The notes: generated by a model from the sequence alone, not told the origin. Positions 22,663 through 47,214 are shown, counted from the stretch's first letter. The stretch: DNA of 64,000 bases from Gammaproteobacteria bacterium (GCA_024235015.1 JACKNG010000003.1:472397-536396); one strand, 5' to 3'. Translations and numbers: made by a program.

Positions 22663-22779
22663 CGGGACATTCTAGCCCGCATTCCGCGCCCGTCTCCTAC
22701 GGCGGCTGCCGGCCTGCGCGTCGCGGCGGACGGGCGCCCGGGCCGGCCTCGCCGTCGCCCCGGTGCGTCGCGGCTTGCC

Positions 22780-24711: not shown

Positions 24712-24945
24712 GCGGGCTGGGAAACTCGTGCGAGCCTCACTGGCAGGGAGCAGTGCCGGGGCGGCCGCGAGCGCGGCCCGGTGACCCGGCGCCGCGCGAG
24801 TTTACGCCGACGCCGGCGTGACGCAAGTACCGCCGTCGCGCGGTCGCGATGGTGTTGCAGGGGCGCTGTCCGCTAGAGTGCCGCAACGTCGCCGGTCGGC
24901 GCCGCGCCGCCCGCGCCCACCCAGCAACAGGGAGTGCCCGAACCC

Positions 24946-26440: not shown

Positions 26441-27433
26441 TCAACGTGCCGCCCGCGCGCAGCGTGGCGGCGGCGCCGCGGTGCCGAGCCCGGTGAGGGC
26501 GCGATCGGCGAACAGCAACAGGTGACCGCGGGCGGCAGCCGCACTGCGCGCGCGTTCGCGTAGCGCCGCGTCGGCCGCGTACTCGACCACGAAGACGGGT
26601 TTGCCGGCATCGATCAGCGGCTTCAGATCGCTTTCGACCGTCGCCGTGTGGGTCGCTGCCTGCGGTTCGTCACCGAGGGTGTAGAGGTCCTCGACCGCGA
26701 TGCCGTCGACGGCCGCCGCGTACTCGGGGAACGCGAGCAAGGCGGAACCGTTCTGCGGTACCACCACGAAGCCCGGGCGGCGCCGGCGCGCGTGGGCAGC
26801 GATGGCCACGACCCAGCGCACCATGTCCTCGCGGTAGCTGCGCCCGGTCTCGGGGTTGATGCGCAGGGCCTGCCAGGTGTCGCTGACCGGGTCTTGCTCG
26901 AAGTACTGGAAGGCATCGACGATGTCGAGGTAGACGCCGTCGAACTCCTGCTCGAGCAGGTCGTCGAGATCGGCCAGCACGAGCTGCTGCCAGCGCTCGT
27001 CCCAGTAGCGCACCTTGTAGTTGCCGGGCCAGTCGGGATTGGGGGCGACGATGAAATCGGGGGTCGCCGCGCTCGGCCTGCCGGCGCCGTCGAAACGCCA
27101 GCCGGCCTGCCAGTACGGGCGGTAGTCCTCGGCCTCGCCGATGGAGAGATAGGACACGACGCTGCGGCCGGGCGCGGCATAGCGCATCGATTCCAGCTCG
27201 GGAATGCTCCAGCGCGCATCGCCGCCGCCGTAGGCGCGGTCGAGCACGAGCACGTCGCGCCCCGATCTCGCCAGCAGGTCGACCGCGGCGAGCCGGTTGG
27301 GTGACAACCGGTCGGCCTGCAGCACGTAGCCGATGCTGCACGGCGGGCTCGCCGCCCACGGTGCGATGTCACCGCCGTCGGCGCCGGCCAGTGGACTGAC
27401 CAGGACGAGCAGCAACGCCGGCAGGCGCGCCAA
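26441..27433 (-). CDS. Secreted GH114 / TM1410-family TIM-barrel glycoside hydrolase-like protein (PelA hydrolase-domain-like endo-alpha-1,4-polygalactosaminidase type)
   Basis: Motifs YLSIGEAEDYRPYW and EFDGVYLDIVDAFQYF recall GH114 (PelA hydrolase domain/Ega3). Signal peptide ARLPALLLVLVSPLAGA. Start uncertain: no ATG upstream of the signal peptide without entering the antisense of the response-regulator gene, so TTG at 27433 is proposed. The 510-aa ORF N-terminus is antisense read-through. Confidence 0.5.
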   Translation of the reverse strand: MARLPALLLVLVSPLAGADGGDIAPWAASPPCSIGYVLQADRLSPNRLAAVDLLARSGRDVLVLDRAYGGGDARWSIPELESMRYAAPGRSVVSYLSIGEAEDYRPYWQAGWRFDGAGRPSAATPDFIVAPNPDWPGNYKVRYWDERWQQLVLADLDDLLEQEFDGVYLDIVDAFQYFEQDPVSDTWQALRINPETGRSYREDMVRWVVAIAAHARRRRPGFVVVPQNGSALLAFPEYAAAVDGIAVEDLYTLGDEPQAATHTATVESDLKPLIDAGKPVFVVEYAADAALRERARSAAAARGHLLLFADRALTGLGTAAPPPRCARAAR

Positions 27434-28541: not shown

Positions 28542-29924
28542 TCAACCACGGATCGACGCGTTGTGCCGCACGAAGGTCTGGTACGGCAGGTCGGCGAGGA
28601 AACGCGCGGTCACCGCGTAGGCGACGATGAAGGTCAGCAGGCAGGCGAGAAAGAAACCGTAGCCGTAGTAGGCGAAGCCGAACTGCAGGCTGGCCCAGGC
28701 GAAGGCCGCATTGGCGGCGAGGAAGAAGGCCTGGATGATCACCACCGGCGCGCGGAAGTCGAAGTAGGCCAGCACGATCAACAGCATCAGTATCAGCACC
28801 TGGAACAGCGAACCGAGCACGCCGAGACGGAAGATGCCGAGCTGCAGGAAATCGATGCCGAAGATCTCGAAGATCTGCGGCGCGAGCAGGATGATGGCCA
28901 GGCTCACCGTACCCTGGATGACCATCATGTTGCGCACGCCGTCGACCAGGGTGCGTACCAGCAGGCGATGGTTGGCGCGGATGTGCTCGAGGTTGGCGTG
29001 GCGCTGCAATTCGCGGAAGAAGTGGATGTATGCCTCGTAGAAACGCGTCTCCACGATCATCATGAAGATCGCCATCGACGGCGTGATGGTGAGGTAGGCG
29101 AGGAACATCGCGCTGTCGTACTGCGGAAAGGTGACCAGCCCGCTGGCCGGATGCACGGCCTCGGGCGCCGTCCACATCACGAACTTGTCGACCCAGATGG
29201 CGGCGTTGTAGGCGAAGCCGGACAGGGCCAGCAGCCAGTAGGGTCGGAACGCCGGCAGGAAGGCGAACGGGCGCGTCACGGCGTAGGGATACTCGGCCAG
29301 GATCTTGGCCAGCAGCATGCTCACCGTCACCACCAGCCCGAGGGTGAAGGCGAGCAGCAGGCCCGCCGCGGTCGGCGCGTTGGCCATCGCGATGCCGGTC
29401 CCCAGCGCCGTGCCCATGCCGAACAGGAAGGCATGGGTGATGCTGCGGTAGTCCTTGAGCGCCGAGAGAAAGATCGAGACCAGCCACATGCAGCCGATGG
29501 CGACGAGGTTGATCACCGCCAGGGTCGCCACGGCCGGGGCGAGATCGGCAAAGCCGAAATACAGCGCGATGGCGAACGGCACCTGGGTGAGCAGCACGAC
29601 CGCGGTCGCACCGACCAGCATGGAGGGAGCGGCGCGCACGTCGGCGGCGTAGATGGCATCGGCCAGCACCCGGGTCAGCACGATCAGCAACGGCCCGCTC
29701 AACACCAGCGAGAAAGCGAAGTTGTAGATGATGACGGTGCGGAACTCTTCCAGCGCGGCGCGGTTGCCGCTGCCGGCGGCGTAGACCGACAGCCCGCCGA
29801 GCGCCAGTACGGTGAACAGCCACGGCCCGTTCGAGGCCATGGCGGAATGGGCGAAGCCCTGCAGGATGCCGAGCAGGTCGTCCTTGCGCGTCAGCTTGCG
29901 CAGGACGAAACCGATCCCGGCCAT
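28542..29924 (-). CDS. pelG: Pel exopolysaccharide locus: PelG-like 12-TM transporter (MATE/PST-like)
   Basis: 461 aa polytopic membrane protein from ATG 29924 (MAGIGFVLRKLTRKDDLLG..., recalled N-terminal signature of PelG). Start overlaps the pelF stop (ATGA). The other-frame ORFs 28339-30156 and 28482-29981 are rejected. Confidence 0.75.
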   Translation of the reverse strand: MAGIGFVLRKLTRKDDLLGILQGFAHSAMASNGPWLFTVLALGGLSVYAAGSGNRAALEEFRTVIIYNFAFSLVLSGPLLIVLTRVLADAIYAADVRAAPSMLVGATAVVLLTQVPFAIALYFGFADLAPAVATLAVINLVAIGCMWLVSIFLSALKDYRSITHAFLFGMGTALGTGIAMANAPTAAGLLLAFTLGLVVTVSMLLAKILAEYPYAVTRPFAFLPAFRPYWLLALSGFAYNAAIWVDKFVMWTAPEAVHPASGLVTFPQYDSAMFLAYLTITPSMAIFMMIVETRFYEAYIHFFRELQRHANLEHIRANHRLLVRTLVDGVRNMMVIQGTVSLAIILLAPQIFEIFGIDFLQLGIFRLGVLGSLFQVLILMLLIVLAYFDFRAPVVIIQAFFLAANAAFAWASLQFGFAYYGYGFFLACLLTFIVAYAVTARFLADLPYQTFVRHNASIRG

Positions 29925-31450
29925 CAGGCCACCGCCTCGTCGCGCGGCGCCGCCCCAGCCGCGTCGGGCATCTCGATGTAGCGCGCGTAGCGTTCGCCGT
30001 AGGCGACCATGACGTCGCGCTCCTGGTAGTAGCAGCGCACGCGTTCGCGGATCGCGGCACTGGCCTCGGCATACCACTCGGCGTCGAGCAGCAGGCGCGC
30101 CACCGCCTGCGCCGTGGCCTCGGGGTCGGACAGGCGCACCACCGCGCCGGCCGCACCCAGCGGCGGCGACTCGTCGCTGCGTCCGAACAGGATTTCCCGG
30201 CACGAACCGACGTCGGTCGCCACCGAGGGAATGCCGACCGCCCCGGCCTCGAGCAGGACCAGCGGCTGGGCTTCGCTGATCGAGGTCAGCACGATGACGT
30301 CGATGCCGCCGAGGTAGTCGTCGAGCCGCACGCGCCCGGTGAAACTCACGCTATCGCCGAGGCCGAGATGCTCGACCATCGCCACGCATTCCTCGTAGTA
30401 CTCCTCGTCCTCCTCGGTCGGCCCCATCACCAGCGCGCGCAGCTCCGGCACCGACTCGCGCAGGCGTGCGACCGCGCGGAGGTAGGACTTGACGTCCTTG
30501 ATCGGCACCACGCGCCCGATCAGGGCGATGGTCGGTGCGCGGCCCTCGCGCGAATGGGTGAGTGCCGAGAAACGCGGGAAGTCGATGCCGTTCGGTACCA
30601 CGGCGAGCTTGGCCGGGTCGGCGCCGTCGGCGATCTGGAAGGCCTGGTTGCCCTCGTAGAGGGTGATGATCTCGTCGCAGGCGTCGTAGCAGGCGCGTGA
30701 ATAACCTTCGAAGGCGGCGATCCAGAAGTCCTTCAGATCGAGCGCCGGGCGATCGATGCCGAGCCCCACCAGGGGCAGCTCGAACAGCCAGTCGGCCATC
30801 GCGATCTCGATGCGCCGCTCGTTGGTGTAGATGCCATGCTCGGTGACGATGGCCGGGCGTCCGGTCTCGATGCGCGCCCGCGCGGCGAACAGGCCGGCGT
30901 AACCCGTCGACACCGTGTGATAGACCCGCGCCCGCGGCATCGGCGCCACGATCAGGCTGAACAGCCCGCCCATCAATGCCCGCCATGACCAGAAGTAATC
31001 GAGGAAGGAGGTCTCGTGGTAGGTGTCGCTGTACATGTCGACGAGGAGCTGCCAGGCCTCGCGCGAATCGAGCAGCACGTCCTGGCCGAGCTCGTGGCGG
31101 CGCGGACCGATGATGTCGATGATGCGCGCCAGCGCCTGCGCCCCGCCACCCTGGACGAGATCCTCGATCGGGGCCCGCAGGCTGGTCAGCAGGCGGCGCT
31201 GGCCACGTACGCGGCGGCGGCCGCGCGCCAGCCGCTGCAGCGTCACCGGGGTCACCGCGACGACGTTGTCGGGCAGCTCGTAGCGGTGCACGAGGTCGGC
31301 GCCGGGCGGCATCAGGGTGAGGATGTGGAACGACAGCCCCGGCAGGCCGCGGATCAGATCGTGGGTCCAGGTCGACACGCCGCCGGCGACGTAGGGATAG
31401 GTGCCCTCCAGCACCAGGCAGACGTCGGCGCTGTGCGCCGCCCGGTTCAC
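29924..31450 (-). CDS. pelF: PelF-like GT4 glycosyltransferase
   Basis: N-terminus SADVCLVLEGTYPYVAGGVSTWTHDLIRGL matches the PelF signature; GT4 fold with EX7E-like C-terminal region. Proposed GTG start at 31450 overlapping the pelE stop (GTGA) gives 508 aa. The ATG at 31492 would overlap pelE by 46 nt. Confidence 0.8.
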   Translation of the reverse strand: MNRAAHSADVCLVLEGTYPYVAGGVSTWTHDLIRGLPGLSFHILTLMPPGADLVHRYELPDNVVAVTPVTLQRLARGRRRVRGQRRLLTSLRAPIEDLVQGGGAQALARIIDIIGPRRHELGQDVLLDSREAWQLLVDMYSDTYHETSFLDYFWSWRALMGGLFSLIVAPMPRARVYHTVSTGYAGLFAARARIETGRPAIVTEHGIYTNERRIEIAMADWLFELPLVGLGIDRPALDLKDFWIAAFEGYSRACYDACDEIITLYEGNQAFQIADGADPAKLAVVPNGIDFPRFSALTHSREGRAPTIALIGRVVPIKDVKSYLRAVARLRESVPELRALVMGPTEEDEEYYEECVAMVEHLGLGDSVSFTGRVRLDDYLGGIDVIVLTSISEAQPLVLLEAGAVGIPSVATDVGSCREILFGRSDESPPLGAAGAVVRLSDPEATAQAVARLLLDAEWYAEASAAIRERVRCYYQERDVMVAYGERYARYIEMPDAAGAAPRDEAVA

Positions 31451-32583
31451 GCCCCCGCCTCCTGGCCGCGGCGCGGCGCGAGGCCGGCCCACATCCGCGC
31501 GCTGTCACTGAGCACGTCGCGCGCGGCGCGACCCTGTGCACCGCGTGCCATTTCCTGGGCCAGCGCGCGCACCGCGTCGAAGTCGCCGCGGCGGTAGTGC
31601 GCCTCGAGCAGCCAGTTGTCGATGCTCGGATGGACGCCGTGACGCTCGCGCGTGGCGAGCAGCCAGTCGCGCGCCGCGTCGACCTCGCCGGCGCGCAGCA
31701 GCAGGCGGCCGACGGCGACGCGCGAATAGAGGTCGTCCGGTTCGTCGTCGAGGTAGCGGCGGTAAGTCTCGATGGCGCGCGTGCGTACGCGCTGCGTGCG
31801 GTCGCCATCGAGCAGGCCGGAGAAGGCATAGCGATCGAGGTGGCGGGCGAGTTCGAGCAGGTGCTTCGGCGCGGGATCGCGCGCGATACGCTTGTCCAGC
31901 GTCATCACGCGGTCGGCGAACTGGCTCTCGAGGTTGGTGATGGCCGTCGCCGCCTGGATGCGCACCGAGTTGTCGGTGTCTTCCAGCGCGCGCTTGAGTA
32001 CCGGCGCGAACGGTGGTTCGAAGTGGCGGCTCATCATGCTGATGGCGAGCTGCTTCTGTTCGCGGCTGCCGTAGTTGATGACGTCGGCGAAGGGGATCAC
32101 CGGCGACTTCGACTCGCGTTGCCGCACCGTCAGCATCAGCTCGTCGTAGATGCGTTCGTAGATGCGCCGGCCGCGCTCGGGAAAGAGTTCCTTGTACCAG
32201 TCCTCGAATGGCCGCGAGCTGCGCAGGTGACGCACGTAGAGCACGAACGCGAGCCCCGTGCTGGCGCTGCCGAGCGGCCCGAACAGCGCGGTCGCGAAGG
32301 CCAGGTACCAGGCCCAGAAGATGCGCGCCGCGTTGCGCCGCCGGAACTCGCTCACGCGCAGGCCGGGCTCCGCGCGGTCGGCATGCAGGCGGTCCTGGAA
32401 GCGATGGGTGTAGAGCGCGGCGTAGGTCGTGCACGCGCCGACGGTCAGCAGGTGGATGACCAGGGCGTCCTGCCACACCGGCCGGGCCTGGACGAACTCC
32501 AGCACGGCCGGCAGGTCGGCGATGGTGGCGACCGCGCACATGCCGACGAAGGCGCTGTTCCAGGCCAGGTCGATGCGCGTCAT
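31447..32583 (-). CDS. pelE: PelE-like inner-membrane TPR protein
   Basis: 378 aa from ATG 32583 (MTRIDLAWNSAFVGMCAVATIADL...). Two N-terminal TM helices and a helical TPR-like C-terminal region. Position between pelD and pelF. Start overlaps the pelD stop (ATGA). Confidence 0.7.
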   Translation of the reverse strand: MTRIDLAWNSAFVGMCAVATIADLPAVLEFVQARPVWQDALVIHLLTVGACTTYAALYTHRFQDRLHADRAEPGLRVSEFRRRNAARIFWAWYLAFATALFGPLGSASTGLAFVLYVRHLRSSRPFEDWYKELFPERGRRIYERIYDELMLTVRQRESKSPVIPFADVINYGSREQKQLAISMMSRHFEPPFAPVLKRALEDTDNSVRIQAATAITNLESQFADRVMTLDKRIARDPAPKHLLELARHLDRYAFSGLLDGDRTQRVRTRAIETYRRYLDDEPDDLYSRVAVGRLLLRAGEVDAARDWLLATRERHGVHPSIDNWLLEAHYRRGDFDAVRALAQEMARGAQGRAARDVLSDSARMWAGLAPRRGQEAGA

Positions 32584-34055
32584 GGCCGCCCCATGCCAGG
32601 CCGGAATGGCGCCGGGCCGCCGGCCGCGGCGGCCGCGTAATCGGGCTCGTGAATGGCGCGGGTGTCGAACGCCACGTCGACGCCGTCGAGTTCCGTCGGC
32701 AGGCGCTCGCGGAAGGCCGCGCACAGGCGCCGGCCGACCTGCTCGGCCTGGGACGGCCCGGCCAGCGGCAGCACGATGTCGAAATGGTGGCCGCTGTCGT
32801 CGCGTTCGAAGGCGAGGTCGGTATCGCGCAGCGAGGCCTGTACCGCCGCACTCAGGCTGCCGGCGATGACCGCGCGCTGGGTGCGCTCGCGCCCGGCCTG
32901 GTCGGCCACCGCGATCGAGACCACCGCGACGGGGAAGCGCGCACGTTCGGCGATCGCGCGCAGCAGTTGCTCCATGCGCGGGAAGAAGGTGCCGGCGTAG
33001 AGCTGGGTCTCGACATCGAGCGCGCGCTCGAGCTGGCCCTGGCGGTAGCGCTGGGCATTGGCATAGAACGCACCGACCCACTCGCACAGGACGCGGAAGA
33101 TCTCGACCGTGCTGAGGTTGAGATCGAGGAAGCCCATGTCCTCGATCTTGATCATGCCGCGCACCTCGCCGGTATCGGGATTGACCAGCGGCCCGGCGAC
33201 GATGCCCTGGCCGGCGAGGATTTCCTGGTCGGCCGGGTCGCTCACGCAGACCACGCGGGCGCGGCCGATGACTTCCTGGAACAGCGGCTGGTCGGCGCGG
33301 AAATTGCGCTTGTAACGATCGCGGCGATGCCAGCCCGACTGGATGGCGGCTTCGAGCTCGTCGCCGGCAAGCAGGTAGATGGAGCACTTCTGCGGGTTGA
33401 TCACCGCCTTGACGTTGTCGATCGCGCCGGTCAGGACCTGGGCCGGCTCCATGCTCTCGACGGCGCGCGCCGCGGTGTACATCGAGACCACGGTGCGCAG
33501 CTGGCCGGCGACGCGCACCTCGAGCTGGCTCTTGGTCTCGTTGAGCGATTCGTAGGCGGCGGCAATGGTGCCGGCGCGGGTGCGCGCCGCCTCGAGATCA
33601 CCACGCAGGTTGTCGCGTTCGCGGATCTGGCGCATGCGCAGCTCACCGAGCAGTACCGCGCTGACCGCCCACATCAGCGGCAGCCGCGCGAGCTCGAACA
33701 GCCAGGCGTAGAGATCCTGGCTCAGGCGCTGTTCGGGGACGTGGCCGGCGAACAGGGCGACGGCGCTGAAGCCGGCCGCCATCAGGCCTTCGCGCGAACC
33801 GTACTGGGTGGCGACGAAGACGACCAGGATCCAGAACGGGTGCGGCTGCCAGCTCCAGTAGCCGTTGCCGTCGAGCAGCAGCAGGTCGATACCGACCAGC
33901 AGGGCGAGGAAGCCGACGATCTCGGCCAGCGCGTTGCCGCGGAACCGCGGGCGCGCGGCGCTGCCGGCGGCGGCTGCCTCGGCTTCCGCCGCTTCCAGCT
34001 CCGCCTCGAGGTCGGGCTGGTCGGTCGCGGGCTGCTCGTCGCCGTGTTCGATCAT
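32580..34055 (-). CDS. pelD: PelD-like c-di-GMP receptor (TM + GAF + degenerate GGDEF)
   Basis: 491 aa. N-terminal TM helices (IVGFLALLVGIDLLLL, FWILVVFVATQY), central GAF-like and C-terminal degenerate cyclase-like region with RxxD-type context. Synteny with pelC/pelE. Confidence 0.7.
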   Translation of the reverse strand: MIEHGDEQPATDQPDLEAELEAAEAEAAAAGSAARPRFRGNALAEIVGFLALLVGIDLLLLDGNGYWSWQPHPFWILVVFVATQYGSREGLMAAGFSAVALFAGHVPEQRLSQDLYAWLFELARLPLMWAVSAVLLGELRMRQIRERDNLRGDLEAARTRAGTIAAAYESLNETKSQLEVRVAGQLRTVVSMYTAARAVESMEPAQVLTGAIDNVKAVINPQKCSIYLLAGDELEAAIQSGWHRRDRYKRNFRADQPLFQEVIGRARVVCVSDPADQEILAGQGIVAGPLVNPDTGEVRGMIKIEDMGFLDLNLSTVEIFRVLCEWVGAFYANAQRYRQGQLERALDVETQLYAGTFFPRMEQLLRAIAERARFPVAVVSIAVADQAGRERTQRAVIAGSLSAAVQASLRDTDLAFERDDSGHHFDIVLPLAGPSQAEQVGRRLCAAFRERLPTELDGVDVAFDTRAIHEPDYAAAAAGGPAPFRPGMGRP

Positions 34056-34143: not shown

Positions 34144-34725
34144 TCAGGGCGCGCCGACGCGGCTCTGCAGGATGCTCACCATTTCGCCGACCAGGCGCTG
34201 GGCCGCGGCATTGACGCTGTCGCGCGCGATGTAGCCGCGCCCGGTGGTGGAATGGCTGGCGGCCCACAACACCTCGCCGGCAGCGCCGACCAGGCGCAGG
34301 TTGATCCCCACCACCGGTTCTTCGTGCAGGCCGTGCTGGTAGCCGTATTCCGACACGCTGCCGACCAGCACGGCATCGACGCCGAGCCGCCCGGCCAGCT
34401 CGGCGGCGCCGACCGATTCGGCGAGGTCGGCGGGTTCGATGTCGAGCCCGCCGAGCGCCTTGCGCAGCGCGGTACCCTCGGTCAGGTCGAACAACTGGCG
34501 CCGGTAGAGTTCGCTGGCGACCAGCTCGCCGACGATGAGGCCGGCCTTGGGGTAATTGGTGAGATTCTCCAGCGGGACCACGGCGACCCGCTGGCGCGCA
34601 CTCGCGCCCGTGCCGACGTAATCGACGGCATAACGGGTATCGGCGCACCCATTCAACAGGAGCGCCAGCACGGCACACAGCACGGCGGCGCCGCGGCACC
34701 GGGCAAGGGGACGGGTTCGACTCAC
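34144..34725 (-). CDS. pelC: PelC-like outer-membrane lipoprotein
   Basis: Lipobox VLALLLNGCAD. About 190 aa, as for PelC. Proposed GTG start at 34725; the ORF-table ATG at 34776 adds 17 residues. Confidence 0.65.
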   Translation of the reverse strand: MSRTRPLARCRGAAVLCAVLALLLNGCADTRYAVDYVGTGASARQRVAVVPLENLTNYPKAGLIVGELVASELYRRQLFDLTEGTALRKALGGLDIEPADLAESVGAAELAGRLGVDAVLVGSVSEYGYQHGLHEEPVVGINLRLVGAAGEVLWAASHSTTGRGYIARDSVNAAAQRLVGEMVSILQSRVGAP

Positions 34726-34849
34726 GTTCTGGCCTTGTTCTTCTTCCACTGCAACAACTTGCGTCCGTTCATCCACGGCCGGGACGGCGCGGCCGATTAT
34801 GGCAGTATCGGCACGCGCGGTGCCATTCCTTACCGGCCGCCAGCGCGCC

Positions 34850-36436
34850 TCACAAGCGGATCATGAGGAAACCGCCGACGCTGTTCAGCTCGTTGGCGCC
34901 GCCGCGCGACGAGGTGATGCTCTGGTTGAAGCGCGCGCCGAGCTCGAGCCCGGGCAGCGGCTGCCAGGCGAGGTCCACGCCGAAATGGTGGCCGCGGCCG
35001 TTGTAACGATCGACGGTGTAGCCGCCGCGCACGCCGACGCGGACGTAATCGGTGAGCTGTTCGTTCCAGGCCAGCTGGAGCTGGTGCACCTCGCGATCGT
35101 TGAAGCCGATCGGCGCGTAGCGGTTGCCGGCAGCGTCGAAGCGCTCGCGCACGTTGCCGAACCGCTCGGTGTCGAAGTAGTACTCCAGCGTGATGCGCGG
35201 CGCGGCGTTCCACAGCGTGTAGGCGGTGGCGAGCTGCAGGCCCCAGGCGTCGGCCAGGGCGGCGTCGCCATCGAGGCCGTAACGGCTGCCGTGCAGGGCG
35301 GTTTCGAGCGTCCACGGTTCGTGCATGCGCCAGCGGTGGGTGAGCTCGGCGCGGTGACGGTAACCGCCATGGGCGATGCCCTCGACGAAGTCCCAGTAGG
35401 GTCGCCAGGCGTCGAGCCGGAAGCGCGTGGTGCCCGGGTTCCAGCCGCGCGCCCAGCCGAGGGTGAGTCCCGGCCGCCCGCCGCCCTCGTGGATCTCCAG
35501 CCGCCCCTCGCCGCCGCCCGGCACGGGCCGTTCGAGGTAGAGGCTGGCGAACTCGCGCCGCCCGCTGAACGACTCGACGAAGCCGGCCGGGTTCTGCACC
35601 TGGGGGTCGTCGACGTCGCGGTACTCGAAGCGCAGGCCGGCGACGGTGTCGGCGCCGGCGAAGGCGCGCGATTCGAGCACCCAGATGAGCTGCTCGTCCT
35701 CCTCCTTGACGTCGCTCAGGTCGAAACTCGCGCGCACCATGGGGCCGTACTCGTAGAGCAGCGCGGCCTTGCCCTCGATCATGAACGGCGCGTCGGCATC
35801 GAGGGCCAGCGCGCGGTTGTACAGCGCGATGGCATCGCGCCAGCGGCCGAGCTCGCGTTCCTGCTCGACCAGGTCGAGCAGGGTCTGCACGTCCTGCGGG
35901 TGACGTTCCATGAGATCACGCAGGCGGGCCCGGGCGCCGGTGCGATCGCCGGCGCGACCGCGGGTCAGGGCCTCGAGACGATCGAGGCGCAGCGCCGAAC
36001 CGTCGTCGACGGCGGCCGGCGCGACCGCCGCGGCGGCGCTGCGCACCAGCCAGATCTCGTGCACCCCGGGGCCGGCGCGCAATTCGACCCGCGCATCGCG
36101 CACCGGCTCGAGGTAGAGGCTGTCGAAGCCGTAGCGCAGGTCCTGGATCCAGCCCGGGTAGCGCTCGCCGAGCCCGGCCAGCACGCTGGCGTCGAAGGCG
36201 GCCGGGAAGCGCACCACCACGCCGCGGCCCGCGAGGTCGATGGCGACGTCGCCGCGCTGGGGGATCGGGATCACCAGGCGCAGGGCGCGCGGTTCGGCCG
36301 CGGCGCTGATCACCGGGACGGTCGGCGCGGTCGTCGCTGCCGGCGCGCCAACCGGCGCCTGCGCCGCCGCGCCGTGGGCCACGCCGGCGAGCAGCGACGC
36401 CAGCAGTGCCCGCCGTATCGACCGTACCGCGCTCAT
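34850..36436 (-). CDS. PelB C-terminal-like outer-membrane beta-barrel (porin) protein encoded as a separate ORF with its own signal peptide
   Basis: ATG at 36436 (MSAVRSIRRALLASLLAGVAHGAAAQAP, good Sec signal peptide) overlaps the stop of the upstream TPR ORF (ATGA). A TPR-like stretch is followed by an alternating amphipathic beta-strand pattern rich in aromatic residues (WRPYW..., LQLATAYTLW..., GVDLAWQPL...). 528 aa. The longer 788-aa ORF-table version is an antisense-type extension. Confidence 0.6.
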   Translation of the reverse strand: MSAVRSIRRALLASLLAGVAHGAAAQAPVGAPAATTAPTVPVISAAAEPRALRLVIPIPQRGDVAIDLAGRGVVVRFPAAFDASVLAGLGERYPGWIQDLRYGFDSLYLEPVRDARVELRAGPGVHEIWLVRSAAAAVAPAAVDDGSALRLDRLEALTRGRAGDRTGARARLRDLMERHPQDVQTLLDLVEQERELGRWRDAIALYNRALALDADAPFMIEGKAALLYEYGPMVRASFDLSDVKEEDEQLIWVLESRAFAGADTVAGLRFEYRDVDDPQVQNPAGFVESFSGRREFASLYLERPVPGGGEGRLEIHEGGGRPGLTLGWARGWNPGTTRFRLDAWRPYWDFVEGIAHGGYRHRAELTHRWRMHEPWTLETALHGSRYGLDGDAALADAWGLQLATAYTLWNAAPRITLEYYFDTERFGNVRERFDAAGNRYAPIGFNDREVHQLQLAWNEQLTDYVRVGVRGGYTVDRYNGRGHHFGVDLAWQPLPGLELGARFNQSITSSRGGANELNSVGGFLMIRL

Positions 36437-39400
36437 GAACCACCGCGCTCGGCCAGGACCTGGCGCGCGCGCCCCAGGCGCTCGGCATCGAGCAGCATGG
36501 TGACGTAGTCGGCGCGCAGGTGACCCTCGCCCGGGCGCTCGTCGAGCAAGGCCTCGAAAGCGGCCAGGGCAGCCTCTTCGTGGCCGAGCCGGTGCAGGGT
36601 CTGGGCACGCACCACGCGGGCGCGGAAACCCGGGTCCGCTGAGGTCGCGAGCAGGGCGAGGATGCGCTCGTAGTGCGGCTCGGCGCGGTTGTGGAAGCCG
36701 CGTTCCTCGAGCGCCTCGGCATAGAAGAAATGTGCCTCGTAGTCGTCGTCGATGCGCGCGAGGTAGCGCTCCAGGTACTGTTCGGCGTCGCCGCGACGCC
36801 CGGCATCGAAAGCGGCCAGGCCGACCTCGCGCAGCGCCCGCGGATCGTCCGGGACGATCTCCAGCAGCGCCAGCCAGGCGCGCTGCGCGACCCGCACGAG
36901 GTCGGCCTCGGAGGCGGTGCGCGCGGCCCAGTGCAGCATCGCCCGGCGCGGCGCGCGGGCGACGTACGCGGCGAGAAAGGCCTCCAACTCGCCGCGCGCG
37001 CCGGCGTCGAGCAACGCGCGCGCGTAGCGTTCCACCACCAGCGGCTCCGGTTGCGCGCCGCGCGCCGCGGCGGCCAGCAGCTCGGCGGCACGCCGCGGCG
37101 CACCGAGCTCGGCGAGCAGCGCCGCCCAGGCCGCGCGCGTTCGGCCGCTGCTCGCCGCCGCCCGCGCCGCCAGCCAGTCGAGGGCGGCCGGCGGCGGCCG
37201 CGGCCCCCACAACCACAACAGGGTGTCGACGCTCTCCCCGCCCGGCGCCTCGTCGGCGGCGAGGGCGAGATGAATGGCCACCGCGCCCGCCTTGTCGCCC
37301 GCTTCGAGCAGGCGCGTGGCAAGCAGGCGGCGCAGCGATCCGGGCAGGTGCGCGTCGCCGGCATGGACCCGCGCGAACGCGAGCAGGCCGCTGCTATCGC
37401 CACCCGCCGCGAGCCAGTCGACGTAGTGCTCGCCCCAACGCGCAGGGTTGGCGGCGACGAGTTCGTCGAGGACCGGGCCGACCGCGTCGCGCGCCGGGCT
37501 CGCCAGCAGGGCATCGCGATAGAGCGCGGCGAGGCCGGCATCGGTCTCGCCCGCGCGCAGGCGGGCGGCGACGAACTCGACGACGCGGGCGGCTGCACCG
37601 GCCTGGTCCGCGGCCGCCTCGAAGGCATAGAAGGCCTCGCGCCGCGCGGCCGCGCCACCCTGCGCCGCGGCAGCCTCGAGGTAGGGCAGCGCGCGCGCCG
37701 GCCCGCCCAGCTCGGCGAGGTCGAAGCGCCAGGTCGCGGCCAGGGCATCGCCGGGCGCGGCGGCATCCAGCCAGGCCGCGAGGCGCACGGCCACCCAGTC
37801 TGCATCGTGCTGCTGCAGGGCGAGATCGCGCCACTGGTAATAGGCGGCCTCGCGCGCCGCCGGTTCGCCGCCGCGGTCGGCCACGCTGGAAGCCAGCGCC
37901 GGCAGCAGCAGCTCGCCGCCGCCGAGACGCCCGAGGTCGTAGACGTAGTTGTCGTGCAGCGGGTCGGCTGGCCCGGCGGCGAGACGCGGGGCAACGAAGG
38001 CGAAGAAGGCCTCGCGCTCGTCGCTGGCGAGGCTGGCGTCGCGGAAGGCGTCGTACCACTGCACGGGGTCGCGTTCGACCAGGGTCGCGAGCAGGGTCTC
38101 GGCCTGCGGCCAGGCGCCGGCGTCGATGAGGTCGTAGGCGAGGGTGCGCGCCTGCACGGAGCCGGCGTCACCCGCCGCCAGGGTCGCCGCGACCAGGTGG
38201 TCGAAGCCGGCCGCGAGGCCGGCCAGGCCCTCGCGTACCGTGCGGCGCTGGCGCAGCAGTGCGAACAGGGCGTCCTGGAACAATTGCCGGCTGGTCGCAT
38301 CGTGGGCCACGCGCGGCGCGGTCAGGGCGACGGCCTGCTCGAAGCGCCCGGCGGCGTGGACCAGGCGCTGGGCCTCGAGATCGCGCACCGGCAGGCGCGC
38401 TCCGGCCCGCGCCGCGACGGCCTGCGCCAGGCCTTCGTCGTCGGCCGCGAGGGCGACCAGGCCGAGTTCGCACAGCAACGCGTCGACGCTGGCGGCCGGT
38501 GCGGCCGGCGCGCTGGCGCGCAGCCACGCGCGCACCGCGTCGCGCTCGCCGGCGCCGGCGGCGAGCAGCGCCCACGCCGCCTGCGCGGGGCCGTCGTCGC
38601 GGGCCACGAGCGCCGGGCCGAGGCGCGCGTAGCCGCGCGCGGCCTGGCCGAGGTCGTGGTAGACCCAGGCCAGCGCCGGGTAGTCGGCCGCCGGCCAGGC
38701 CGCGTCGGCGAGCAGTGCCGCGACGGTCGTCGGGTCACCCAGCGCCAGGGCCAGGTTGAGGCGGCGCAGGCGGGTCGCCGGTGGCGCGGTGTCGATCGCG
38801 GCGTAGGCGGCACGCGCACCCGCGACATCGCCGGCGAGCAGGCGGAACTCCGCCGCGCGTAGCGGCGCGGCGAGCGCGGGCGCGTCGACCAGTACCGGCG
38901 CCGCCAGCCGCGCCAGGGTGGCATCGCCGGCCTCGACCAGGGCGACCGCCAGGCCGCCGCCGACGAGCGCGGCGAGACGCCCTTCGTCACGCAGGGTGTG
39001 CAACAACGCGAGGGCGCGCGGCGACAAGGGCGGTACCGCGCGTCCACCCTGGCGCAGGGCACGCAAGCCGGTGTCGGCATCCAGGGTCGCCACGTAGTCG
39101 CTGAAGATGGCGGGCTCGCCCAGCACCGCGCCCAGCGCCAGCGCCGGCGCCAGCAGGTCGGCACGGCCCGGTCGCTGCGCCAGCACCATGCGCAAAGTCG
39201 GGCCGGCGGCCGCGGCCTGCTGCCGCGCGACCAGGGCGGCCAGGGCCTGCATGAAGCCGTCGGCGTCGTCGGCCGCCTCGACCCAGCGGCGCGCGACGTG
39301 CGCCATGGCGTCCGCGTGTCCGGCGGCAGCGTAGACGTCGAGGGCAAACAGGCTGGCATTGGCGTCGGGCCGGCCGCCGGCACGGCCGCGCCAGGAATCT

Positions 39401-39942
39401 AGCGCCGCCACCGCGCCGTCGACGTCGCCGTCGACCCACAGCAGGCGGGCCAGGCGCAGGGTTTCGGCGTCGTCCGCATCGCCACGTTCGACCAGGCGGG
39501 CGAGCGCGCCGGCTTCGCCATCGCGGTCGCCGGCAAAGGCGTAGAGGCTGGCCAGCTCGCGTACCAGCGCGGTGCTCGGCACGAGCTCGACGCGGCGCGC
39601 CAGCGCGGCGCGGTAGCGTGCCGGCTGCATGGTGTCGCGGTAGACCTCGAGCGCGAGGTCGTAGGCCTCGAGGTCGTCGGGGCGCTCGGCCAGGGTCCGG
39701 TCCATGGCCTCGACGGCGGCCTCGACCTCGCCCTGCTGCAGGTAGAGCTTGTTGAGCGGCACGACCACCGTGGGCCGTGCGCCGTGGGCCAGGAATTCGC
39801 GCTCGAAGCCACTCAGGGCATCGCGGTAGCGCTTGGCCTTGTAATACATGAGCGCGAGTTCCTGTCCGCGCGGCACCAGCAGCACGCTGAGCGCGAGCGC
39901 CGCGACACTCAGCGTGACGAGGAAGACGACGTGGCGCCACAT
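36433..39942 (-). CDS. pelB: PelB-like TPR-repeat scaffold protein (N-terminal TM anchor + about 1100 aa of TPR), lacking the porin domain
   Basis: 1169 aa. N-terminal MWRHVVFLVTLSVAALALSVLLV TM helix followed by uniform helical Ala/Leu-rich TPR-like repeats through to the C-terminus (…AEALEERGFHNRAEPHYERILALL…). The stop at 36433 overlaps the next ATG. Confidence 0.75.
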   Translation of the reverse strand: MWRHVVFLVTLSVAALALSVLLVPRGQELALMYYKAKRYRDALSGFEREFLAHGARPTVVVPLNKLYLQQGEVEAAVEAMDRTLAERPDDLEAYDLALEVYRDTMQPARYRAALARRVELVPSTALVRELASLYAFAGDRDGEAGALARLVERGDADDAETLRLARLLWVDGDVDGAVAALDSWRGRAGGRPDANASLFALDVYAAAGHADAMAHVARRWVEAADDADGFMQALAALVARQQAAAAGPTLRMVLAQRPGRADLLAPALALGAVLGEPAIFSDYVATLDADTGLRALRQGGRAVPPLSPRALALLHTLRDEGRLAALVGGGLAVALVEAGDATLARLAAPVLVDAPALAAPLRAAEFRLLAGDVAGARAAYAAIDTAPPATRLRRLNLALALGDPTTVAALLADAAWPAADYPALAWVYHDLGQAARGYARLGPALVARDDGPAQAAWALLAAGAGERDAVRAWLRASAPAAPAASVDALLCELGLVALAADDEGLAQAVAARAGARLPVRDLEAQRLVHAAGRFEQAVALTAPRVAHDATSRQLFQDALFALLRQRRTVREGLAGLAAGFDHLVAATLAAGDAGSVQARTLAYDLIDAGAWPQAETLLATLVERDPVQWYDAFRDASLASDEREAFFAFVAPRLAAGPADPLHDNYVYDLGRLGGGELLLPALASSVADRGGEPAAREAAYYQWRDLALQQHDADWVAVRLAAWLDAAAPGDALAATWRFDLAELGGPARALPYLEAAAAQGGAAARREAFYAFEAAADQAGAAARVVEFVAARLRAGETDAGLAALYRDALLASPARDAVGPVLDELVAANPARWGEHYVDWLAAGGDSSGLLAFARVHAGDAHLPGSLRRLLATRLLEAGDKAGAVAIHLALAADEAPGGESVDTLLWLWGPRPPPAALDWLAARAAASSGRTRAAWAALLAELGAPRRAAELLAAAARGAQPEPLVVERYARALLDAGARGELEAFLAAYVARAPRRAMLHWAARTASEADLVRVAQRAWLALLEIVPDDPRALREVGLAAFDAGRRGDAEQYLERYLARIDDDYEAHFFYAEALEERGFHNRAEPHYERILALLATSADPGFRARVVRAQTLHRLGHEEAALAAFEALLDERPGEGHLRADYVTMLLDAERLGRARQVLAERGGS

Positions 39943-39966: not shown

Positions 39967-42261
39967 TCACGGCGCCGCCGCCAGCGCGGCGTCGACGCGG
40001 GCGATGGTGAAACGCACCGGGGCGTAGGCGGCCTCGCCGAGGCTGAAACGCAGCCGGCCGGCAGCGTCGGCGACGACCTCGAAGCGCCGCGGCGCGGGCC
40101 CGTCCACCACCGTCACCACGTAGTGCTGGCCGGGCTGTCCCTGCCAGCTCATCTCGCCCTCGCCGTAACCGCCGGCGGTGGCCTCGACGTGCCCGGCGGC
40201 GAGACTGCAATCGTGCACGTCCCAGCGCGATTCGACCAGGTAGAGCGGCGCCGCGACACCCGGCGCGGCGCCGAGCGCCACGCGCGGCGTCGTCACCGCG
40301 GCATCGAGCGCGACGTAGAGGCTGCCCTGGTAGCGCCGCCGCCCGATCACGCCGTGCGAGCCGGCCCAGTCGACGTCGCGCTGGTCGGCGTCGTCGAAGC
40401 GCAGCGTCTGCAGGCCGCCACGGTCGTGCACCGTCCACGTCGCTGGCCCTGCGCTGACCAGGCGGGTGGTGAAGAAGCCGGCGCCGATGCTGGCGTAGCG
40501 GCTGGTCTCGATCGGGATCAGGGAATGGCGGCGGACCCACTGCAGGTTCTTCAGCAGCGCGCGCAGCGCCGCCTGCCGCTCGCCGGAATACATGTGGTAG
40601 TAGACGTTGGCGGCACGCACGCGCCGCGGCGACTCGGTGCGTTCGAGGGTCTCCGGCAGGAAACCGAAGGCGTAGTACCGGCTGCGCCACAGATCGGTGT
40701 AGGTGTTCTCGTTGCTGTTGCTCGAGTAGACCTGCCAGTACGGTCCGATCCGCCGCCCGACCGGGGCGACGAAGGCATAGGAGGGGAAATCGCCGTCGAA
40801 ACGCGAGTCGCCGCCGTTGATGTTGCCGAGACCGGCGGCGGCGGTGGCGGCCATCACCGCTGCGAAAGGCAGGGTGTCGCCAGACCACTGGATCACCCGG
40901 CAACGCTTGCCGGGTGGCGCCAGGCGCTCGACGATGGCGACCGAGCCGCCGACCTCGAGGTTGATGTCGAACGGCGCGAGCGCATAGGCGCGGGGCACGT
41001 AGGCGGCGGTGTAGCTGACCTCGTCCTCGTCTTCGGCGAGTAGCTGGGCGTGCTGCTTCTCGAGGCCCTCCCAGCCGAAGTAGCGCCCACCCTGCATGGT
41101 TTCGTAGCGCGGCAGGTAGGCCGCCTCGCGCTGCGCTTCGTAGTGTTCGAAGAAACCCCAGGCGAAGGGATGGGTATGGGTGTGCGTACCGAGCTCGACC
41201 TGCGGCAGGGCGAACAGGTCGCGCGCCGCGGCACGCGCGGCCTCGTCGCCGTACCAGGCGGGATCGAGGTCGGCGGTGATCGGCGAGACCGTCACCGGCA
41301 GGTCGGGGAAGGGACGGATGGCTTCCTCCAGGATCACCCGCGCCGAGATCACCTGGTGGCCGGCATACTCGTCGGCCAGCGAGACGTTACGCCAGCCGTC
41401 GCCGTCGATGTGGCTGTAGTAGATGCGCCGCCCGGCCAGGGTCGTCGTATCCGGCTTGGGCAGGTCGTCGGTGGCAAAGGCGGCGCGCAGGAAGGCGAAG
41501 GGATCGATAATCCACTGCCGCTGCGCGTTCTCCACGCCGCGATAGAGGGCGTAGTCGGCGGCGACGTAGCCACCGGCCGCGCCGGTGACCACGAGATCGG
41601 CGACCTCGGCCGCTCCCGGCTCCGGGCGCACCGCGAGGTGGCTGGTCGCGCCGGGTACGCGCCGGGTCATGACGAAATAGGGCAGCGGCGCGACGAGCGG
41701 GCGTTCGAAACCGATCAACGCCGGGTCGGCGCGCTCGACGCGGGCATCCGCGCCGACCCGCTCGGCGCTGTCGTCGACCGCGATGCCGAGGTGGGTGAGC
41801 ACGCGGTCGAGGCGTTCGCGGTCGACGTAGCGGCCGAAGCGATCGGTCGCGGCGACGAGGTCGCCGAGGATGGCCACGCGCTTGCCGGCGTTCAGCACGC
41901 CCGCCAGCCAGTCGAGGAAGGCGTCGGGGTCGGCGACGTCGGGCGAACGCTGCCACATCACCACCCCGCGCACGTCATCGCGCGCGCCGATGTCGGGCAG
42001 CGGCTGGGCGAGGTCGTGGAACTCGAAGACGAGGCCGAGGTGATTGGCCGGCATTTCCAGGAAGCGATGCAGCGAGGTGGCGTGCCGCGGCCCGCGGCGC
42101 GCATCGTAGAGCGCGACGACGACCCGCGGTACCGCCGCACCCGGCGCGGCGGCGGGCGCCGCCCGTAGCGGCGCGACCGCGAGCAGGCACCAGCACGCGC
42201 ACGCCAGCACGATGCCGCACGAGGTACGGCCACGGCCGTGGGTCTGGTCTGCCTGGATCAT
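39967..42261 (-). CDS. pelA: PelA-like polysaccharide deacetylase (CE4 domain) protein
   Basis: Signal peptide (IVLACACWCLLAVAPLRAAPA). CE4-like motifs YYSHIDGDGW and ELGTHTHTHP. 765 aa versus about 948 for P. aeruginosa PelA; the N-terminal region shows no obvious GH114 motif. ATG 42261 chosen as start. Confidence 0.7.
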   Translation of the reverse strand: MIQADQTHGRGRTSCGIVLACACWCLLAVAPLRAAPAAAPGAAVPRVVVALYDARRGPRHATSLHRFLEMPANHLGLVFEFHDLAQPLPDIGARDDVRGVVMWQRSPDVADPDAFLDWLAGVLNAGKRVAILGDLVAATDRFGRYVDRERLDRVLTHLGIAVDDSAERVGADARVERADPALIGFERPLVAPLPYFVMTRRVPGATSHLAVRPEPGAAEVADLVVTGAAGGYVAADYALYRGVENAQRQWIIDPFAFLRAAFATDDLPKPDTTTLAGRRIYYSHIDGDGWRNVSLADEYAGHQVISARVILEEAIRPFPDLPVTVSPITADLDPAWYGDEAARAAARDLFALPQVELGTHTHTHPFAWGFFEHYEAQREAAYLPRYETMQGGRYFGWEGLEKQHAQLLAEDEDEVSYTAAYVPRAYALAPFDINLEVGGSVAIVERLAPPGKRCRVIQWSGDTLPFAAVMAATAAAGLGNINGGDSRFDGDFPSYAFVAPVGRRIGPYWQVYSSNSNENTYTDLWRSRYYAFGFLPETLERTESPRRVRAANVYYHMYSGERQAALRALLKNLQWVRRHSLIPIETSRYASIGAGFFTTRLVSAGPATWTVHDRGGLQTLRFDDADQRDVDWAGSHGVIGRRRYQGSLYVALDAAVTTPRVALGAAPGVAAPLYLVESRWDVHDCSLAAGHVEATAGGYGEGEMSWQGQPGQHYVVTVVDGPAPRRFEVVADAAGRLRFSLGEAAYAPVRFTIARVDAALAAAP

Positions 42262-42502
42262 GGTGTCGCTGTTCGCTTCCTGCCGCGGCGGCATCGTCGC
42301 GCCGGGCCGTGTCGGCTGTTGCGCCGCATCAACGGGGTAGCGGCCCTTCGCGCCCGCAATGAACCCCGGCGGCGGGATAGTAGTCGCTCGCCGCCGGCGT
42401 TAGAACCGGGCCGGTGCGGGGGCACCGCCGGCGCACGGTGATAGCATGCGCGGCGGCCGGCCGCGCGTGCGACCGGCGCCACCCTGAAGCCCGGAGAAGA
42501 CC

Positions 42503-43660
42503 ATGAAGCTCGAAGGCGTGCGCGTGCTCGACCTGTCCCTGTTCCTGCCCGGCCCCGTGATGACCCAGATGATGGCCGATCACGGTGCCGAGGTGATCAA
42601 GCTCGAACCGCTGGCAGGCGAACCCAACCGCGAGATCGGGCCGAAGCGCGACGGCCTCACCGTCTACTTCGCCAACACCCATCGCAACAAGCGCTCCATC
42701 CAGCTCAACCTCAAGACCGCCGCCGGGCGCGCCGCCGCGCTCGATCTCGCCGCGACCTGCGACGTCGTCGTCGAGGCCTTCCGTCCCGGCGTGATCGAGC
42801 GCCTGGGACTCGGCTACGAGGCGGTGCGCGCGCGCAATCCCGGTGTCGTCTACTGCTCGATGTCGGCCTGGGGCCAGGACGGACCCTACGTGCAGGTGCC
42901 GGCCCACGACCTCGCCTGCGAAGCCGTCGCCGGCGTGTTGAGCCTGAACCGCGGTGCGGACGGCAGCCCGGCCATCCCCGGCATCGCCGGCGCCGACATG
43001 CTGTCCTCGATGATGACGCTCTCGGCCATCCTGATGGCGCTGCTCAGGCGCAAGGACACCGGCGCAGGCGACTACGTCGACGTCGCCATGGCCGATTCGC
43101 TGATCGCCGCGCTGGCCAACAACATGGGCACGACCTTCGCCGACAAGACGCCGCCCGACCTCGCCCACGAACGCGCGCTGGGCGGCTATGCCATGTACAA
43201 CATCTACCCGACCAAGGGCGGCGGCCACCTCGTGCTCGGCGGCTCGGAGATCCACTTCGCCGAGGCCATCCTCGAGCGCCTCGGCCGTCCCGACCTGCTC
43301 GAACTGTGCCAGCCGCCGCCGGGGCCGCGCCAGGAGCCGGTCAAGGACTTCCTGCGCGAGACCTTCCTCACCCGTACCCGCGACGAGTGGATGGAATTCT
43401 TTCGCGGCATCAATGCCTCGGTCGCCCCGCTGAACGATCTCCGCGAGGCGGTGGACGACCCGCAGCTGCGCCACCGTCAGATGATCGTCGAGGACGAACG
43501 CGGCTGGGAGCACATCGGCACGCCGCTCAAGTTCCGCCACGAACCGGGCGAGTTGAAGTTCACCTTCGCGCAACCCGGCGAGCACACCGAGACCGTGCTG
43601 CGCGAACTCGGTTACGACGCTGCCGCGATCGCCGCCATGAAGGCCGAAGGCGCGTTCTGA
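42503..43660 (+). CDS. CoA-transferase family III (CaiB/BaiF; alpha-methylacyl-CoA racemase-like)
   Basis: MKLEGVRVLDLSLFLPGPVMTQMMADHGAEVIKLE... is the classic family III N-terminus; conserved Asp region. 385 aa. Confidence 0.9.
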   Translation: MKLEGVRVLDLSLFLPGPVMTQMMADHGAEVIKLEPLAGEPNREIGPKRDGLTVYFANTHRNKRSIQLNLKTAAGRAAALDLAATCDVVVEAFRPGVIERLGLGYEAVRARNPGVVYCSMSAWGQDGPYVQVPAHDLACEAVAGVLSLNRGADGSPAIPGIAGADMLSSMMTLSAILMALLRRKDTGAGDYVDVAMADSLIAALANNMGTTFADKTPPDLAHERALGGYAMYNIYPTKGGGHLVLGGSEIHFAEAILERLGRPDLLELCQPPPGPRQEPVKDFLRETFLTRTRDEWMEFFRGINASVAPLNDLREAVDDPQLRHRQMIVEDERGWEHIGTPLKFRHEPGELKFTFAQPGEHTETVLRELGYDAAAIAAMKAEGAF

Positions 43661-46832: not shown

Positions 46833-47214
46833 GACCGCAGTGGCACGCGGCAGCCCCGCCGCCTTCTCAGGCCACGTCTGTGGCGTGCTGCGACGGCCGC
46901 CGGCACGGCGCGACGTACGTTCCATCACAGGGGTCGTCGCGTTCCGGCTGGAACCGCTAGCGTCGGGTCGTGGGTGTGCGGGGCCCGCGGGGGTGGTCCG
47001 CCGGTCGCGCTACGGCGGCGTGCTCGGCCCGGATGTCACGGCGGTCGGGCGAATGTAACAAATTGTCACGTTTCAGCCGGCGGCCGGCGGTCGACTGAAC
47101 CCGCTCGCCGATTCCGCTATCGTCCTCCTGTCGGAGTCGTAGCCTCGGCCAGCCATGCGACAGCGCGGCCAGCGTGGGGTGCCCTGTCAGGATCGCAACG
47201 GAGGGGGAATCCTC

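Follow-up and report, generated by a model that had tools for sequence, protein, structure and literature searches.

Characterised pel loci encode PelB, the exporter of the biofilm polysaccharide Pel, which joins a periplasmic scaffold of tetratricopeptide repeats (TPRs) to an outer-membrane porin, as a single polypeptide, and the locus considered here raises the question of whether the same protein can be made in two pieces. The locus lies in a stretch of 64,000 nucleotides (the window; GC content 70%) from the metagenome-assembled genome of an uncultured gammaproteobacterium, and all coordinates given below are positions in that whole window. On the minus strand, between genes for a PelA-like protein and for PelC, two open reading frames (ORFs) stand in the place of one pelB; their products are called PelB-N and PelB-C. 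The initial annotation of the window considered a genuine split gene, a very recent frameshift and an assembly error. The evidence described below argues for the first of these: PelB is very probably encoded here as two translationally coupled genes, in an architecture that is stable and inherited. The parts of the split gene are as follows.

36433..39942, minus strand: PelB-N, a scaffold of 1169 residues with an N-terminal hydrophobic helix and a long region of putative helical repeats and TPRs (Pfam, BLASTP).
36433..36436, minus strand: ATGA stop/start overlap that joins both ORFs, read directly from the sequence.
34850..36436, minus strand: PelB-C, a predicted, separately exported outer-membrane porin subunit of 528 residues (AlphaFold2 model, Foldseek).
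36362..36436, minus strand: predicted Sec-type signal peptide at the N-terminus of PelB-C, to about residue 25 (sequence features, model, homologues).
36041..36307, minus strand: predicted eight-stranded (4+4) beta-sandwich of PelB-C, residues 44-132 (AlphaFold2 models of the full protein and of the isolated domain).
35747..35998, minus strand: five predicted helices of PelB-C that form two TPRs and a stalk helix, residues 147-230 (model, Pfam TPR matches).
34856..35740, minus strand: predicted 16-stranded beta-barrel of PelB-C, residues 233-527 (16 strands by DSSP of the model, Foldseek).

The junction is as the initial annotation had described it, with a TPR ORF of 1169 residues and an ORF of 528 residues meeting in ATGA. 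The upstream ORF (36433-39942) begins with ATG; the downstream frame is open from 34850 to 37216 on the minus strand, and from the ATG at 36436 it is translated into exactly 528 residues and a stop. The sequence reads ...GGT GGT TCA TGA / ATG AGC..., so that the ATG (36436-36434) overlaps the TGA (36435-36433), and a Shine-Dalgarno-like GGTGG motif is found immediately 5' of the overlap. Both ORFs are coding. When GC content at third codon positions (GC3) is plotted by frame, it is 0.83-0.98 in the 1169-residue frame from 39850 to about 36550 and 0.87-0.98 in the 528-residue frame from 36400 to 35050, and it changes frame exactly at the ORF junction; the open frame 5' of 36436 is therefore non-coding, and the ATG at 36436 is a sensible start. 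Given the overlap, translation of the two genes would be coupled. The combined length of 1697 residues is above that of P. aeruginosa PelB (1193 residues), as had been pointed out, and the single-chain relatives in this clade are also long (1415-1545 residues). Current database labels read only "tetratricopeptide repeat protein" for the porin and "hypothetical protein" for the scaffold.

Structure prediction had been proposed as a check on the porin-like character of the 528-residue ORF, and the outcome supports that character. An AlphaFold2 model built on 66 homologues (mean predicted local distance difference test score, pLDDT, 92.1; predicted template-modelling score, pTM, 0.77) consists of a signal-peptide helix, a disordered Ala/Pro linker, a beta-sandwich, two TPRs with a stalk helix, and a 16-stranded barrel. 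The top match of this model in a Foldseek search of the PDB is 9h80_M, the PelB chain of the P. aeruginosa PelBC complex (E = 2.4e-16, target template-modelling (TM) score 0.72, 17% identity), and BcsC and PgaA are the second- and third-best matches. The barrel of P. aeruginosa PelB spans residues 877-1193, has 16 strands, and carries Plug-I between strands 7 and 8 (PMC12141448). The model of PelB-C likewise has a 16-stranded C-terminal barrel that follows TPR helices, and the short helix that separates its strands 7 and 8 (residues 351-356) is at the Plug-I position. The TPRs themselves are matched by Pfam at residues 155-225 (TPR_14, 24.3 bits; TPR_19, 24 bits), and the two TPRs and "stalk" of P. 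aeruginosa PelB lie inside the PelC ring in the structure determined by cryo-electron microscopy (cryo-EM; PMC12141448). As modelled, then, the 528-residue protein corresponds to the porin end of PelB, with a beta-sandwich in addition. The initial description of a porin region holds, and to it must be added the two TPRs, the stalk helix, and an N-terminal beta-sandwich that had not been predicted.

PelB-C also carries a predicted Sec signal peptide of its own, again in agreement with the initial annotation. Its N-terminus, MSAVRSIRRALLASLLAGVAHGAAAQAP, has three Arg residues, an 11-residue hydrophobic core and an AAA|Q motif, at which cleavage probably occurs, and in the AlphaFold2 model residues 2-24 form an isolated helix that is followed by a disordered linker of low confidence. 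No segment resembling this signal peptide is present at that position in the fused relatives (described below) when the junctions are aligned.

The beta-sandwich also folds when modelled in isolation (pLDDT 87), and it has a conserved motif, W..(D/E)(L/V)RYG(Y/F)D. None of 35 members matches any Pfam family at E<=5 over this domain, and a profile of it has no match in the PDB. By Foldseek it weakly resembles the AMIN domain of AmiC (4bin; TM score 0.54, root-mean-square deviation (rmsd) 4.4 Å, E = 0.012); the alpha-crystallin domain of small heat-shock proteins gives a better E-value (about 2e-4) but an rmsd of 10-13 Å, and is likewise a weak match. The likeness of the predicted domain to AMIN is a lead only. 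Most fused relatives contain the beta-sandwich and some lack it, arguing that it is an accessory module.

The scaffold protein, PelB-N, begins with a hydrophobic stretch of 19 residues, VVFLVTLSVAALALSVLLV (residues ~5-23). Because this helix has no AXA site, it is probably a signal anchor and not a cleaved signal peptide; it corresponds to the inner-membrane helix proposed for residues 1-36 of P. aeruginosa PelB (PMC12022489). Including this helix, PelB-N is collinear in BLASTP alignments with the first 1020-1050 residues of two single-chain relatives (P0047 and P0048), and over the last 340-400 residues its identity to them is 35-37%. The exact protein is also present at NCBI (H6977_09675, 100% identical), on a 675-kb contig.

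Because these relatives join the two halves covalently, PelB-N and PelB-C can be regarded as parts of one functional unit. The single-chain proteins are 1519 (P0047), 1545 (P0048) and, for the others, 1415-1483 residues in length, and come from metagenomes. The part that corresponds to PelB-C is residues 1054-1518 in P0047 and residues 1031-1542 in P0048, and the gene for P0048 sits in a pel locus with genes for GH114, PelA-like, PelB, PelD, PelE, PelF and PelG proteins. These fused, long PelB proteins are thus collinear with PelB-N plus PelB-C, but they are covalently continuous and have no internal signal peptide. In the fused forms, the last TPR is followed by a short linker and then by the beta-sandwich; the window carries an insert of about 45 residues at this point, which corresponds to the stop, the signal peptide and the Ala/Pro linker. 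Judged from the aligned sequences, the chain is broken in the linker that leads to the beta-sandwich.

The initial annotation had proposed a comparison with related loci, and both the split and the predicted second signal peptide turn out to be conserved. The exact 528-residue protein is public under two accessions (MCB1748302.1 and MCP5200273.1) and was seen on 4 contigs, which belong to at least two assemblies. Related loci, retrieved in part with an alignment of 11 sequences, contain two-ORF relatives at 42-91% identity in independent gammaproteobacterial metagenome-assembled genomes, with the order PelA-like, ~1180 residues, 524-542 residues, PelC to PelG, GH114. The 4-nucleotide NTGA overlap (ATGA or GTGA) recurs in the loci L001/L002, L003, L006/L007, L009 and L013, and the split architecture as a whole is found in at least 6 other assemblies from different studies. 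In the Magnetococcales, at least 120 nucleotides separate the scaffold gene from the porin gene. A HMMER search of 1.84 billion cluster representatives returned 515 matches at E<=1e-3, 82 of them at E<=1e-30. Lengths and N-termini were tallied for 157 proteins, 150 of them from this search: about 120 are standalone proteins of 500-800 residues and 15 have 900 residues or more, and nearly all of the full-length standalone homologues start with a basic and then hydrophobic segment resembling a signal peptide. The split is read as genuine because of the independent assemblies, the conserved gene order and overlap, the large standalone family and the insert at the junction, and in this the first option of the initial annotation is upheld.

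Variations on this layout occur in other loci. In L009 (5881-7449), the closest species-level relative, the mature porin is 91% identical and the N-terminus is a different one, MNSPLTALGIALTLVFAAVGC, which ends in a lipobox-like AVGC; here the porin may be a lipoprotein instead of an ordinary Sec substrate. The scaffold is itself encoded by two ORFs ahead of a standalone porin in a metagenome contig (L004, 671-7108; 801 and 634 residues), in a Nitrospinaceae locus (L014, 907-7407; 800 and 644 residues) and in a Magnetococcales locus (L015, 163-7527; 996 and 514 residues), so that PelB consists of three polypeptides in these cases.

Several observations weigh against a PelB-type assignment, or limit what can be said about its history. 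The Pfam model of the PelB barrel, PF24604, matches PelB-C below its gathering score (21.2 bits against 31; E = 2.4e-4) and over profile positions 126-210 only, and 9 of the 66 family members match it at E<0.01 (best E = 8e-7); the profile-based check that had been suggested for the 528-residue product therefore succeeded for the TPRs and stayed below threshold for the barrel. A PDB search with a profile of the barrel alone missed 9h80_M even at E = 10, and BcsC and PgaA as well; sequence searches of the PDB with both halves gave generic TPR matches only. The C-terminal residue of PelB-C is Leu, and not the aromatic residue that is usual in beta-signals. With barrel similarity at this sub-threshold level, the assignment of PelB-C to the PelB type rests on fold and context. 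For PelB-N, the TPR matches in Pfam are confined to residues 35-95 and 1018-1140, all of them weak and below the gathering score, and no TPR motif is detectable by Pfam in the middle 900 residues. The label of TPR scaffold is thus supported at both ends, while the middle is taken to be a helical repeat because it is homologous to fused PelB-like proteins. Finally, in a neighbour-joining tree of 144 barrel modules the fused forms fall in several small groups among the split ones; the long branches of this tree are unsupported, and given its weakness no claim is made about the direction of change (fission or fusion) or about the number of events.

The trivial explanations for a broken gene have to be set against this evidence. 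A recent frameshift, meaning a 1-nucleotide insertion or deletion near 36435 in a single-chain pelB with a signal peptide downstream of it by coincidence, would account for the collinear alignment of the single-chain relatives (1415-1545 residues) over the junction. However, the split and its 4-nucleotide overlap are kept in independent genomes down to 42% identity, the ~45 extra residues of signal peptide and linker do not resemble the outcome of a simple insertion or deletion, and signal-peptide-like N-termini are near-universal among the standalone homologues; GC3 is also high in both ORFs (0.83-0.98 upstream, 0.87-0.98 downstream). The frameshift suggested in the initial annotation is therefore extremely unlikely. 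An artificial stop at 36433 could also have been created by an error of sequencing or metagenome assembly, and the window does come from a metagenome-assembled genome in which another gene contains 1.2-kb tandem repeats of 100% identity, a pattern that might signal assembly problems. The exact 528-residue protein on 4 contigs, under two NCBI accessions and in different assemblies, and the same architecture in the other assemblies from differing studies leave this option of the initial annotation next to no chance of being correct.

Other alternatives accept the two ORFs and differ about their products. Programmed ribosomal frameshifting or stop bypass might yield a single-chain PelB in addition, as the ORFs do overlap and a covalent link is evidently functional in the fused relatives. 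Against this, there is no slippery heptamer at GGTGGTTCATGA, a fusion would leave a hydrophobic signal peptide midway through a periplasmic domain, and the variation of the overlap between ATGA and GTGA, together with the Magnetococcales genes at least 120 nucleotides apart, fits re-initiation. For lack of a slippery site, and in view of the predicted signal peptide of the downstream ORF, programmed frameshifting was rejected and must be considered very improbable. A different possibility is that PelB-C is a self-sufficient exporter with its own TPRs and that the 1169-residue protein is an independent accessory, such as a PelA anchor or a PelE-like partner, which never docks with it. PelB-C does hold every element resolved in the PelBC cryo-EM structure, one locus (L017) has no large same-strand TPR ORF within 5.8 kb before the porin, and in other lineages the TPR part is shared between two ORFs. 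But the fused relatives link the two parts by only a short linker, adjacency and the 4-nucleotide overlap are strictly kept in the clade of the window, and the TPR region of P. aeruginosa PelB is needed for PelA localisation and biofilm formation (PMC12022489). On balance an exporter that works without the scaffold is unlikely.

How a PelB made from two coupled genes might work can be sketched from these results. PelB-N would be held in the inner membrane by its N-terminal helix, with the long TPR/alpha-solenoid region reaching into the periplasm, and, by analogy with P. aeruginosa PelB, it might guide the nascent Pel polymer and hold the PelA-like deacetylase; TPRs 9-15 of the P. aeruginosa protein bind PelA (PMC12022489). 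PelB-C would cross the inner membrane via Sec with a cleavable signal peptide; its barrel of 16 strands would then insert in the outer membrane, and the TPR pair and stalk helix in front of it would sit in the ring of PelC lipoproteins. In PelB as known, this ring around the porin end is a PelC dodecamer, and the exported polymer is cationic GalNAc/GalN. The ATGA overlap would couple the synthesis of both halves, presumably matching their amounts. The halves could then find each other again at the site of the old linker, where the final TPRs of PelB-N would bind non-covalently to the end of PelB-C that carries the beta-sandwich and TPRs, and this docking would restore the continuous conduit of single-chain PelB. 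The construct used for PelBC cryo-EM was an engineered PelB fragment (residues 762-1193) without the TPR domain (PMC12141448, PMC12022489), and because it sufficed for the PelBC structure, the porin end is apparently able to assemble alone.

The split gene is part of a genuine pel operon, and the product of the operon is presumably of the Pel type, judging from its genes. The order on the minus strand is PelA-like, the 1169-residue ORF, the 528-residue ORF, PelC, PelD, PelE, PelF, PelG and GH114 hydrolase, so that the PelB-encoding ORFs lie between pelA and pelC and alongside pelD, pelE, pelF and pelG; the same pel gene order is found in L001, L003 and L006. The genes around the split pelB are the following.

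39967..42294, minus strand: PelA-like modification enzyme, 775 residues (phmmer match to PelA, PDB 9cgy_A, E = 2.9e-60).
34144..34776, minus strand: PelC lipoprotein (lipobox LLLNGC; phmmer matches to PDB 9h80_C, E = 1.4e-10, and 5t11, E = 2.3e-10).
32580..34055, minus strand: PelD-like cyclic di-GMP (c-di-GMP) receptor with GAF and degenerate GGDEF domains (GAF_3, 52 bits; PelD_GGDEF weak, 16.6 bits).
31505..32583, minus strand, start approximate: PelE-like protein with a C-terminal TPR (GC3 frame plot; TPR_16, 27 bits).
29924..31492, minus strand: PelF glycosyltransferase (Pfam DUF3492, 277 bits, and GT4 domains).
28542..29924, minus strand: PelG (PF16933, 417 bits), with its start Met overlapping the pelF stop.
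26441..27420, minus strand, start approximate: separate periplasmic GH114-family hydrolase (PF03537, 85 bits; TM1410 GH114, E = 1.5e-32).

Residues 55-667 of the PelA-like protein align to residues 255-813 of PelA in the phmmer search of the PDB (HMMER envelope to ~847), and a Pfam scan of the protein gives no match. The aligned region of PelA is its mixed alpha/beta and deacetylase part; the N-terminal hydrolase domain is missing from the PelA-like protein. The position of the PelE-like gene between pelD and pelF agrees with L001 and L006. The long ORF of the GH114 gene has an upstream part that is occupied by a response regulator on the opposite strand.

PelA, too, is split in this operon, into the PelA-like gene without a hydrolase domain and a distinct GH114 gene after pelG, whose product has a signal-peptide-like N-terminus of its own and is the counterpart of the absent hydrolase domain. 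This layout recurs in L001 and L006, and in L008 the GH114 gene directly precedes the PelA-like gene. The pelF stop and the pelG start share one base (29922-29926, minus strand), as they do in L001 (16354), so that several junctions of the operon besides that of PelB-N and PelB-C appear to be built for translational coupling. Between pelG and the GH114 gene lies a single-domain response regulator (27464-27865, plus strand; 133 residues; PF00072, 79 bits), kept at the same position in L001 and L006, which is a possible regulator of the pel locus besides the c-di-GMP receptor PelD.

The operon is flanked by ordinary genes, on one side those for a family III coenzyme A (CoA)-transferase (42503-43660, plus strand) and a LysR regulator (43789-44685, minus strand), and on the other those for a glutathionylspermidine synthase/CHAP protein (22780-24801, minus strand) and a PAS histidine kinase (20518-22671, minus strand). 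The family III CoA-transferase also adjoins the pel locus in L001-L003. Elsewhere in the window, an ORF of 1836 residues (47143-52653, plus strand) without a Pfam match contains repeats that span 48064-51954, in at least 3.25 copies of a 1197-nucleotide unit with 100% nucleotide identity; each unit holds two sub-repeats of ~300 nucleotides that are 64% identical. Either the ORF encodes a giant surface protein made of repeats, or the repeat array is an artefact of assembly.

In single-chain PelB, one end has to be held by the inner membrane and the other has to fold into the outer membrane, and the natural cut shows that the covalent link between the two is dispensable. The split also defines a minimal autonomous porin module, consisting of beta-sandwich, two TPRs, stalk and barrel, of which the last three match the construct engineered for PelBC cryo-EM, and it provides a natural system for the study of scaffold-porin pairing. 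For annotation, the sub-threshold score of PF24604 on PelB-C means that surveys can under-count complete pel systems. Current understanding of the mechanism of Pel export is unchanged by the split. A much bolder proposal, and a rather doubtful one, is that split PelB-C with its beta-sandwich is the predominant Pel porin in environmental Proteobacteria, Nitrospinota and Magnetococcales, missed by the standard PelB models, and that the sandwich is a new docking or peptidoglycan-anchoring (AMIN-like) module for capture of the scaffold. If this were true, many pel loci would have been scored as exporter-less, and the trans-envelope conduit would be reversible instead of covalent.

The initial annotation set the locus against the single-chain PelB of characterised pel loci. 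The splitting of pelB is not unprecedented. Bundalovic-Torma et al. (2020, PLoS Comput Biol, PMC7112194) indicate a "pelB fission", along with pelA rearrangements, in some pel operons (Fig 5iii). The mention is that of a figure legend, which names "aquatic thermophilic species" and gives no split point, signal peptide or domain analysis; the fission it refers to may or may not be the split in the window. One operon in the supplementary survey table of the same paper has hits for PelA, PelA, PelC, PelF and PelG and none for PelB, and its protein identifiers skip two genes between PelA and PelC; this entry suggests that the PelB model of the survey can miss divergent pelB genes (PMC7112194). The features that appear to be undescribed are a break that falls in a domain linker, conservation of the predicted signal peptide and of the 4-nucleotide overlap, the additional beta-sandwich, and the fact that standalone forms outnumber the others in this divergent PelB clade.

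Among characterised systems, the closest comparison is with P. aeruginosa PelB (1193 residues, PDB 9h80). As in that protein, the coding region lies between pelA and pelC, there is an N-terminal inner-membrane helix (predicted here) ahead of a long TPR region, and two terminal TPRs and a stalk precede a barrel of 16 strands that has a helix between its strands 7 and 8. Unlike P. aeruginosa PelB, in which one polypeptide runs from the inner-membrane helix through ~19 TPRs to the porin, the window has all of these modules on two chains, the porin with a predicted signal peptide of its own and the total ~500 residues longer. An extra beta-sandwich precedes the terminal TPRs, and the barrel similarity is under the Pfam cut-off and goes undetected by comparison of profile with sequence. 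BcsC (cellulose) and PgaA (poly-N-acetylglucosamine, PNAG) resemble this arrangement in having a TPR region followed by a 16-stranded barrel, but they belong to other operons and other polymers, and their characterised members are single chains.

The two-protein design itself has its counterpart in alginate export, which is likewise part of a synthase-dependent exopolysaccharide system. AlgK is an outer-membrane lipoprotein with no inner-membrane anchor, and AlgE is an 18-stranded barrel without TPRs. Like PelB-N and PelB-C as proposed here, these are a TPR scaffold and an outer-membrane barrel that are exported separately and assemble non-covalently (PMC9734138, PMC12022489). Unlike the alginate proteins, PelB-C retains two TPRs, and homology between the two systems is limited to the TPR and barrel folds. 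The arrangement in the window thus converges functionally on AlgK/AlgE, and by ancestry it is a PelB.

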